Of a DNA stretch of 64,000 nt, positions 22,110-22,322 are shown one piece after another. The notes under the pieces are model-generated. The model worked only from the letters and a program-made list of their open reading frames with translations. It did no database searches and had not been told where the DNA came from. This DNA comes from Escherichia coli. GTDB taxonomy: Bacteria; Pseudomonadota; Gammaproteobacteria; Enterobacterales; Enterobacteriaceae. The DNA lies in NCBI RefSeq assembly GCF_001677475.2, contig NZ_CP015229.1, one strand, 5' to 3'. Both the position numbers and the translations under genes were made by a program. Numbering within the stretch: the stretch's first letter is position 1; every line of letters starts with the position of its first letter.

Positions 22110-22157
22110 AAATTCTGCAAACAAAAAGATGCCGGAAAAAAATAGATTTTCCGGCAT
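22110..22157 (-). terminator. hairpin with U-tract on the minus strand
   Basis: ATGCCGGAAAA/TTTTCCGGCAT 11-bp stem; T-rich run follows only in minus orientation. Confidence 0.4.
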
Positions 22158-22322
22158 GCTACATAAATCCCGACCAAAGGAAGTAAATACATTAACACGA
22201 ATTATCAGCACTGAAGTTGTCACGGCATATTTTATACAACATTGCACTTGGTTGCATGTATTCGCATAGCAGACATCGGTAATAGAATATATTCACAATT
22301 ATTTGTAATGAATGTAAAGAGG

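Follow-up and report, generated by a model that had tools for sequence, protein, structure and literature searches.

A minus-oriented terminator-like hairpin at the left end of the capsid cassette of an E. coli phage-inducible chromosomal island and the short leftward RNA predicted to end at it

Introduction

Phage lambda makes the oop RNA, 77 nt long, which is transcribed leftward among rightward genes from a promoter of its own to an intrinsic terminator and which works as an antisense RNA, overlapping cII at the 3' end of the gene. The satellite P4 has the CI RNA, a small non-coding RNA controlling the satellite's own gene expression, which is processed from a longer leader transcript and makes transcription end prematurely where complementary sites are present. 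The intrinsic terminators of E. coli, including those that end Hfq-binding sRNAs, were reportedly analyzed by d'Aubenton Carafa in 1990, Otaka in 2011 and Ishikawa in 2012.

In the Vibrio cholerae satellite PLE, SviR was shown experimentally to be a small RNA (bioRxiv 10.1101/2022.04.08.487710). For the phage-inducible chromosomal islands (PICIs) of Gram-negative bacteria no master repressor is known, and the timing of their packaging genes is not understood (PMC6092414). The organization of the EcCICFT073 class of these islands has been described, and its module order is matched by the island analyzed here (PMC6092414, PMC6739421). The same two papers mention no RNA, terminator or antisense RNA at the position treated below (PMC6092414, PMC6739421), and in a wider literature search the hairpin sequence was found in no paper, nor was an RNA or terminator described here for E. 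coli PICIs.

Results

The hairpin lies within the 64-kb stretch of DNA that was analyzed as a whole (the window), in an island of around 11 kb that adjoins a tRNA-Pro gene (15540-15613) between yejM and yejO. The island encodes an integrase, an AlpA-family regulator, a D5-type primase, Ssb, a gpE-family capsid protein, a gpD-family decoration protein, a second AlpA-like protein and a Nu1-like protein, the gene of the latter being the small-terminase (Rpp-like) gene of the packaging cassette. The identity of the capsid gene is given by its Pfam match (Table 1) and also by the RefSeq annotation of 98.8%-identical loci. All the elements of an EcCICFT073-type PICI were found, namely int, alpA, a primase-replicase, gpE and gpD homologues, an Rpp/Nu1-like gene, cos and the tRNA-Pro flank. 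Based on the Pfam matches, the annotation of near-identical loci, cosN, the tRNA-Pro flank and the comparison with EcCICFT073, we classify the island as an EcCICFT073-class PICI at tRNA-Pro. The first-pass annotation, which had seen here a replication block followed by the capsid gene of a helper-dependent satellite, was right in this respect, as judged from Pfam and the near-identical loci.

Two further details of the island were noted. An exact lambda cosN, GGGCGGCGACCT, is present at 24172-24183, between the AlpA-like and the Nu1-like (Rpp/TerS-like) genes, and the hairpin was discarded as a cos or packaging site since this cosN is 2 kb away. On the other side, the deletion in ssb has its junction at 21991/21992 and is flanked by two copies of GCCAGAACGGC; the missing 56 bp are present in 98%-identical relatives, and their loss breaks the frame, leaves a 99-aa ORF and puts the conserved SSB C-terminal ...DNIPF out of frame. 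The original-frame stop codon (22109-22111) is located 17 nt before the hairpin.

Table 1. Features of the region between ssb and the capsid gene, in window coordinates.
Feature	Coordinates	Strand	Basis or remark
ssb, broken by a 56-bp deletion	21745..22111	+	comparison with relatives
Terminator U-tract, also left edge of the capsid cassette	22119..22128	-	A-tract kept in 31/31 contexts
Predicted leftward transcript, ~63 nt, inferred	22120..22182	-	promoter motif and terminator
Terminator stem-loop, 11-bp stem, 7-nt loop	22129..22157	-	fold, strict scan, type A conservation
Predicted RNA 5' body, (A)CUUCCUUUGGUCGGGAUUUAUGUAGC	22158..22182	-	near-invariant in type A
Extended -10 promoter-like motif TGTTAATGT	22197-22189	-	invariant columns, 69/69, PWM scan
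Invariant A[CT]TTTATACA box; minus strand reads TGTATAAAAT	22229..22238		alignment and PWM scan
Three TTGCAY/TTCGCA boxes, ~10 bp apart	22242..22266	+	cross-genus alignment
Predicted capsid-operon promoter TTCGCA-16-TAGAAT	22261..22288	+	best plus-strand promoter; relatives TGaTAGCAT
Major capsid protein gene, lambda gpE family, first in the packaging cassette	22329..23369	+	Pfam Phage_cap_E, E 2.9e-41

The hairpin has the sequence ATGCCGGAAAA-AAATAGA-TTTTCCGGCAT, with five G-C pairs in the stem and A-U pairs in its inner half. When read on the minus strand, the stem is directly followed by CTTTTTGTTT (plus strand at 22119-22128, AAACAAAAAG), in which the U-tract CUUUUUGUUU has U at 8 of 10 positions and is interrupted (U5 G U3), so that a stable G+C-containing stem-loop and a U-rich tract immediately 3' of it, the components of an intrinsic terminator, are both present in this orientation. 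On the plus strand, GCTACATAAA follows the stem, with 2 T among the first eight bases, and GCUACAUAAA stands 3' of the full stem, which is not the U-rich 3' tract of a plus-strand or bidirectional terminator. The 76-nt hairpin context was folded in both orientations, giving -16.2 kcal/mol (z -3.3) for the plus strand and -18.9 kcal/mol (z -2.0) for the minus strand.

The 64 kb were also scanned for strict terminators, taken as perfect stems of 9 bp or more that contain four or more G-C pairs, enclose a loop of 3-8 nt and are followed by a 10-nt tail with no fewer than 7 T. Two loci were detected, 22129-22157 on the minus strand only and 30278-30300 in both orientations, and the same scan found no locus in 12 dinucleotide-preserving shuffles. 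The second of these loci, the sole other strict terminator in the window, is formed by GCCCGATGG..CCATCGGGC and has T-rich tails on both strands. In a consensus scan of 18-27 kb the hairpin was the top-ranked terminator-like site. Most of the weak matches of that interval (19 of 22) are on the minus strand because the plus strand is A-rich, and for the same reason a T run on the minus side is somewhat favored by composition. Taken together, the anatomy, the fold z-scores and the strict scan against shuffles confirmed that the hairpin is a minus-oriented intrinsic-terminator-like element and not a chance feature. The claim of an 11-bp-stem hairpin having its U-tract on the minus strand only is therefore borne out by the sequence and by the strict scan.

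To which of its neighbors the hairpin belongs was deduced from its distribution. The 231 bp at 22105-22335 were found in 365 of 5426 complete E. coli genomes (~7%), annotated nearly always between ssb and the capsid gene, and around 750 further genomes match the ssb part only, with the similarity ending at query position 412-416. In other islands the ssb homology stops at ~22111-22116, just past the ssb stop codon. A query of the region against a phage collection gave no match. Viral contigs were then scanned for the conserved capsid-promoter box, which together with three other genera resulted in 69 unique upstream sequences; a similar scan of genome contigs gave 3 loci. Among the 69 sequences, the hairpin sits behind many unrelated plus-strand accessory genes, and in one locus (L052) directly behind a complete plus-strand terminator of another module. 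In a sister island (L003), a ProQ/FinO-family gene begins 36 nt past ssb, and the interval contains no hairpin. Because the ssb homology ends at the stop codon, the upstream genes vary and L003 and L052 have these arrangements, we assign the hairpin to the capsid cassette; the comparisons show that it travels with this cassette and not with ssb.

The same loci provided some observations on the surroundings of the hairpin. Where the replication genes give way to the capsid cassette, at 130-270 nt to the left of the TTTATACA box, many unrelated plus-strand accessory genes are found (L004-L006, L008, L010, L026, L059, L060, L080), which code for small membrane-like proteins and for 290-372-aa proteins without assigned function; this slot looks like a variable cargo site. 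In L003 the gene that directly follows the same ssb (3508-4038) encodes a ProQ/FinO-family RNA chaperone, and a conventional plus-strand terminator is present at 4280-4320, upstream of an HK97-type capsid gene; this plus-oriented terminator is AAAGGCCCGGA..TCCGGGCCTTT, followed by TTTTCAGG.

Two hairpin types with unrelated sequences were found at this position. Type A, GCCGGAAAA..TTTTCCGGC, is the one of E. coli and of the window, and type B, GCGGGC..GCCCGC, is a different, G+C-rich hairpin found in Kluyvera, Kosakonia, Superficieibacter and other contigs. Polarity was counted in 15 type A and 16 type B distinct contexts, taking the 8 nt on each side of the core stem. A mean of 6.4 (type A) or 6.6 (type B) A was found 5' of the stem, and a mean of 2.0 or 3.3 T, respectively, 3' of it, the minus-side tract being the richer one in all 31 contexts. 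The A-tract is kept although the sequence further left differs between contexts, and in relatives the minus-side tract is conserved as 5-9 U. The plus side has 2 T out of 8 in all 15 type A contexts and 2-5 in type B, which suggests that type B is partly bidirectional and type A is not. These counts show that the leftward polarity is conserved across both unrelated hairpin types.

A third allele of the capsid-upstream region was observed in EcCICFT073 itself (L120, 23208-23463), where a perC-like gene is followed by a plus-strand terminator (23231-23248) and by a second hairpin (23267-23297) with A7 at its 5' side and T4 at its 3' side. As read from the sequence, this pair is a convergent-terminator layout, with two convergent transcription units. 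The locus also has a palindromic ATTATAAT -10 upstream of the capsid gene, and a 14-bp hairpin with a T-run at 23404-23435, inside the capsid-operon leader, that could be an attenuator.

These comparisons bear on two other explanations of the hairpin. It could belong to the plus strand, as a weak terminator or stabilizing stem at the 3' end of the ssb/replication transcript, the A-tract being incidental. Its position 17 nt past the ssb stop codon, the plus-strand fold (z -3.3) and the type B hairpins, which have 2-5 T after the stem and sit behind plus-strand genes, are in line with this. We nevertheless find it quite improbable, since in all 15 type A contexts the 8 nt that follow the stem contain no more than 2 T, ssb occurs in other islands without the hairpin, the hairpin segregates with the capsid cassette, and both L052 and EcCICFT073 have a separate, proper plus-strand terminator beside a minus-biased hairpin. 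The other explanation, a decayed bidirectional terminator or a chance structure with no present function, could be drawn from the partly bidirectional appearance of the type B hairpins and from the A-rich plus strand. However, no comparable element appeared in 12 shuffles, and conservation of the stem, together with the A-tract and the flanking body, extends over the 365 E. coli genomes and over two type A sub-lineages with ~86% identity, so a relic seems extremely unlikely to us.

Sixteen representatives were aligned from the hairpin to the capsid start. The ~100 bp between the hairpin and the A[CT]TTTATACA box are nearly unalignable between types, and the sole columns of this interval that are invariant across genera are five, A...TA.CA on the plus strand, which corresponds to TGnTAnnnT on the minus strand. 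An alignment-free check located TGnTAnnnT at offset -42/-43 from the box in each of the 69 unique sequences, in 11 variants (including TGTTAATGT, TGTTAATAT, TGTTATCGT, TGATATGGT and TGCTATCAT) that differ at tolerant positions only, and the same pattern was detected on the plus strand of this interval in 2 of the 69.

In extended -10 promoters the TG and the T at -12, A at -11 and T at -7 matter most, and a -35 is dispensable. The conserved motif has precisely this make-up of a sigma-70 extended -10 (TGn), with TG at -15/-14 and TAnnnT at -12 to -7. In the window the TG is at 22197-22196 and the hexamer TAATGT runs from 22194 to 22189, 32 nt upstream of the hairpin stem on the minus strand, with a predicted start at ~22182 ± 2. 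The hexamer is imperfect, the predicted start base is a pyrimidine, and reading the sequence by eye we found no usable -35 for the motif. Alternatively, the motif could serve to bind a protein, with a phasing of 42-43 bp relative to the TTTATACA box. Its invariant TA.CA was also considered as a plus-strand -35 and ruled out by sequence reading, as no lineage has a usably spaced -10. A second leftward candidate, (A/G)TGCAA-17-TAAA(A/G)T, with its -10 TAAAAT at 22234-22229, is weaker and conserved in position (13/13 representatives, 6.7-8.2 bits), and would yield an RNA of ~105 nt from a start at ~22222.

The conserved polarity, the linkage to the cassette and the invariant extended -10 motif led us to predict a leftward non-coding RNA of ~63 nt, from 22182 to 22120. 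Its body would be C/U-rich at the 5' end (anti-Shine-Dalgarno-like) and A/U-rich just ahead of the terminator. Comparison of 52 unique type A sequences shows this 25-nt body to be near-invariant and the adjoining 33 bp on the right to be variable at many sites. The predicted minus RNA, folded as 66 nt, gave -19.4 kcal/mol (z -3.9), and equivalent units of 62-82 nt were predicted in L002, L004, L005 and L006. The sole small ORF of the minus strand (22198-22070) was rejected, as it runs through the terminator. With regard to the leftward transcript that had been proposed to start within 22160-22320, the interval is upheld by the conserved extended -10 inside it and the polarity is kept in 31 of 31 contexts, while the transcript itself stands as a prediction.

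The explanation that we favor, to which we give somewhat better than an even chance, is that the hairpin is the Rho-independent terminator of a tiny, self-contained leftward unit at the left end of the PICI capsid/packaging cassette. RNA polymerase would start at the -35-independent extended -10 TGTTAATGT, transcribe ~25 nt, C/U-rich and then A/U-rich, and stop at the hairpin and U-tract (22157-22119), releasing a non-coding RNA of ~63 nt. The hairpin, its polarity and the conservation of this polarity, the conservation of the promoter-like motif and the linkage to the capsid cassette can be read directly in the compared sequences; the firing of the promoter, the exact RNA ends and any function are what we infer from them.

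The position of the unit relative to the capsid operon was also studied. The predicted capsid start is at ~22295, 34 nt ahead of the ATG at 22329. The TTGCAY/TTCGCA boxes are probably a candidate activator site of the capsid promoter, and no other cluster of TTGCAY-type boxes was found in the 64-kb window. A sigma-54 reading of the TTGCAC...TTGCAT boxes was ruled out by sequence reading, as the spacing falls short by one base and there is no GG. The predicted leftward (~22182) and capsid (~22295) starts are divergent and ~110 bp apart, without overlap. Therefore, the proposal in the first-pass annotation that the leftward RNA is antisense to the capsid leader is not supported. All these starts are predicted; the alternative one at ~22222 also lies left of ~22295, so the overlap with the capsid mRNA that defines a cis-antisense RNA was found for neither.

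For such a cis-antisense regulator of the capsid mRNA, the RNA would have to come from within or from the right of the capsid leader, and two minus-strand sites could be invoked, TTTACA-18-GAATAT near the capsid start (-10 at 22291-22286) and TTTACA-16-TAATAT inside the capsid gene (22693-22666). These candidates are weak or located in coding sequence, and are not conserved as a motif across types; moreover, the first would start at ~22279, still left of the predicted capsid start, and the conserved promoter-like motif is far from the leader. We thus hold this reading to be very improbable.

The function of the predicted RNA was approached by looking for targets, structure and known families. 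Duplex screens covering the translation-initiation regions of the island and all lambda genes gave duplexes no better than those of shuffled queries (p 0.32-0.78). The RNA pairs over 8-9 bp with the SDs of the gpD-like and AlpA-like genes, which is generic anti-SD pairing. Rfam 15 on 15-27 kb had tRNA-Pro as sole match, the best local matches at the hairpin region (E 0.07-7.4) being far under the gathering cut-offs. Esr41 was considered as a candidate identity and ruled out because it is located on SpLE1, a different island.

In type B loci (L006, L008, L010, L026 and others) a stem-loop UGUUAUUU-CCUCC-AAAUAACA, with GGAGG on the plus strand, was observed ~45-75 nt left of the TTTATACA box, exactly at the predicted RNA 5' end; type A is without it. 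The stem changes symmetrically, being CUGUUAC/GUAACAG in Kosakonia and UCUGUCGC/GCGACAG in Superficieibacter, and it could be an RNA hairpin or, equally, a palindromic operator for a dimeric protein. Counting pairs in the type B RNAs, 85.8% of the cells are paired, against 30-58% when the count is slid, which indicates conserved structure. Covariation among type B relatives was not significant, with shuffles attaining the observed scores. The G.U versus C.A strand test was mixed, so that wobble pairs do not decide which strand is folded, and RNAalifold on a MAFFT alignment of the type B RNAs had the hairpins mis-registered. Apart from a C/U-rich motif, the RNAs of types A and B have little sequence in common, and a structural or insulating role accounts for this no less well than a conserved trans-acting seed.

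Two functions of the favored leftward unit may be considered. By analogy, it could encode a base-pairing small RNA of Hfq-type architecture, as the predicted unit would combine a promoter motif with an unpaired 5' region, a U-rich stretch and a poly-U terminator, the U-tail being interrupted in the window. Alternatively, leftward transcription would oppose read-through from the replication genes, which the type A hairpin by itself cannot stop, and the terminator would shield ssb from antisense transcription. This insulator reading is equally economical as the small-RNA one. In its broadest form, the first option implies that the packaging cassettes of a widespread enterobacterial PICI family encode a conserved, constitutively promoted sRNA of ~60-80 nt acting in trans on SD regions of mRNAs from helper phage, satellite or host, whose seed would be the C/U-rich 5' end in E. 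coli and the CCUCC loop in other genera, a proposal that we advance tentatively and consider rather doubtful.

A simpler possibility is that the hairpin works purely as an insulator, a one-way terminator that halts stray leftward transcription, begun at the capsid promoter or further right, before it reaches ssb and the replication genes, in which case any short RNA made would be functionless itself. The conserved polarity, the location at the cassette boundary, the lack of conservation between type A and type B RNA sequences, the target screens without signal and the presence of weak leftward promoter-like sites further right (for example, TTTACA-18-GAATAT ending at ~22286) all agree with it. 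Nonetheless, it leaves unexplained why precisely the five defining extended -10 positions, 30-60 nt ahead of the terminator, are the same in all 69 sequences and why the 25-nt body is near-invariant within type A, and we regard it as unlikely.

Discussion

The data support a conserved mini-unit of promoter-like motif and terminator beside the capsid-operon promoter, shared by ~7% of the complete E. coli genomes and by several other genera. Placed where the replication module meets the packaging module, it is a candidate for an RNA regulator or for a transcriptional insulator of the two. It also delimits, on the left, a cassette that recombines as one block behind the variable slot for accessory genes, and this boundary is useful for the annotation and engineering of these islands. 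If a trans-acting sRNA were indeed made, it would be an RNA regulator in the conflict between E. coli satellites and their helpers, and possibly a part of the missing control of Gram-negative PICIs.

A plausible view of the unit is that it belongs to a known general kind of element, as a candidate small-RNA gene or as an insulator made up of promoter and terminator. By sequence comparison and Rfam it has no sequence or family relationship to oop, P4 CI or SviR, and its likeness to them is one of layout. Like lambda oop, it is very short and leftward, is placed between rightward modules and has a promoter and terminator, as predicted; in contrast to oop, it overlaps no gene or predicted mRNA, and there is no sequence similarity. 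As in the case of P4 CI, it would be a small non-coding RNA of an E. coli phage satellite, although one with a separate promoter-like motif and a terminator, and the screens revealed no site complementary to it. In sequence, the hairpin resembles the terminators of E. coli Hfq-binding sRNAs in its G+C-rich stem base, 7-nt loop, U-rich tail and the A/U-rich stretch ahead of it, and differs from them in the A-U pairs of the inner half of the stem.

Within the PICIs, the order of gpE-like capsid, gpD-like decoration, cos and Rpp/Nu1-like genes is that of EcCICFT073 c1499-c1504 (PMC6092414, PMC6739421), whereas the capsid-upstream allele of EcCICFT073 differs from that of the window in having the perC-like gene, the plus-strand terminator, the second hairpin and the leader hairpin. 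Finally, SviR of PLE belongs to another host and another satellite family and is unrelated in sequence, and the RNA of the window is only predicted; as a small RNA of a phage satellite, however, SviR is a precedent for control at the RNA level in the conflict between satellite and helper.
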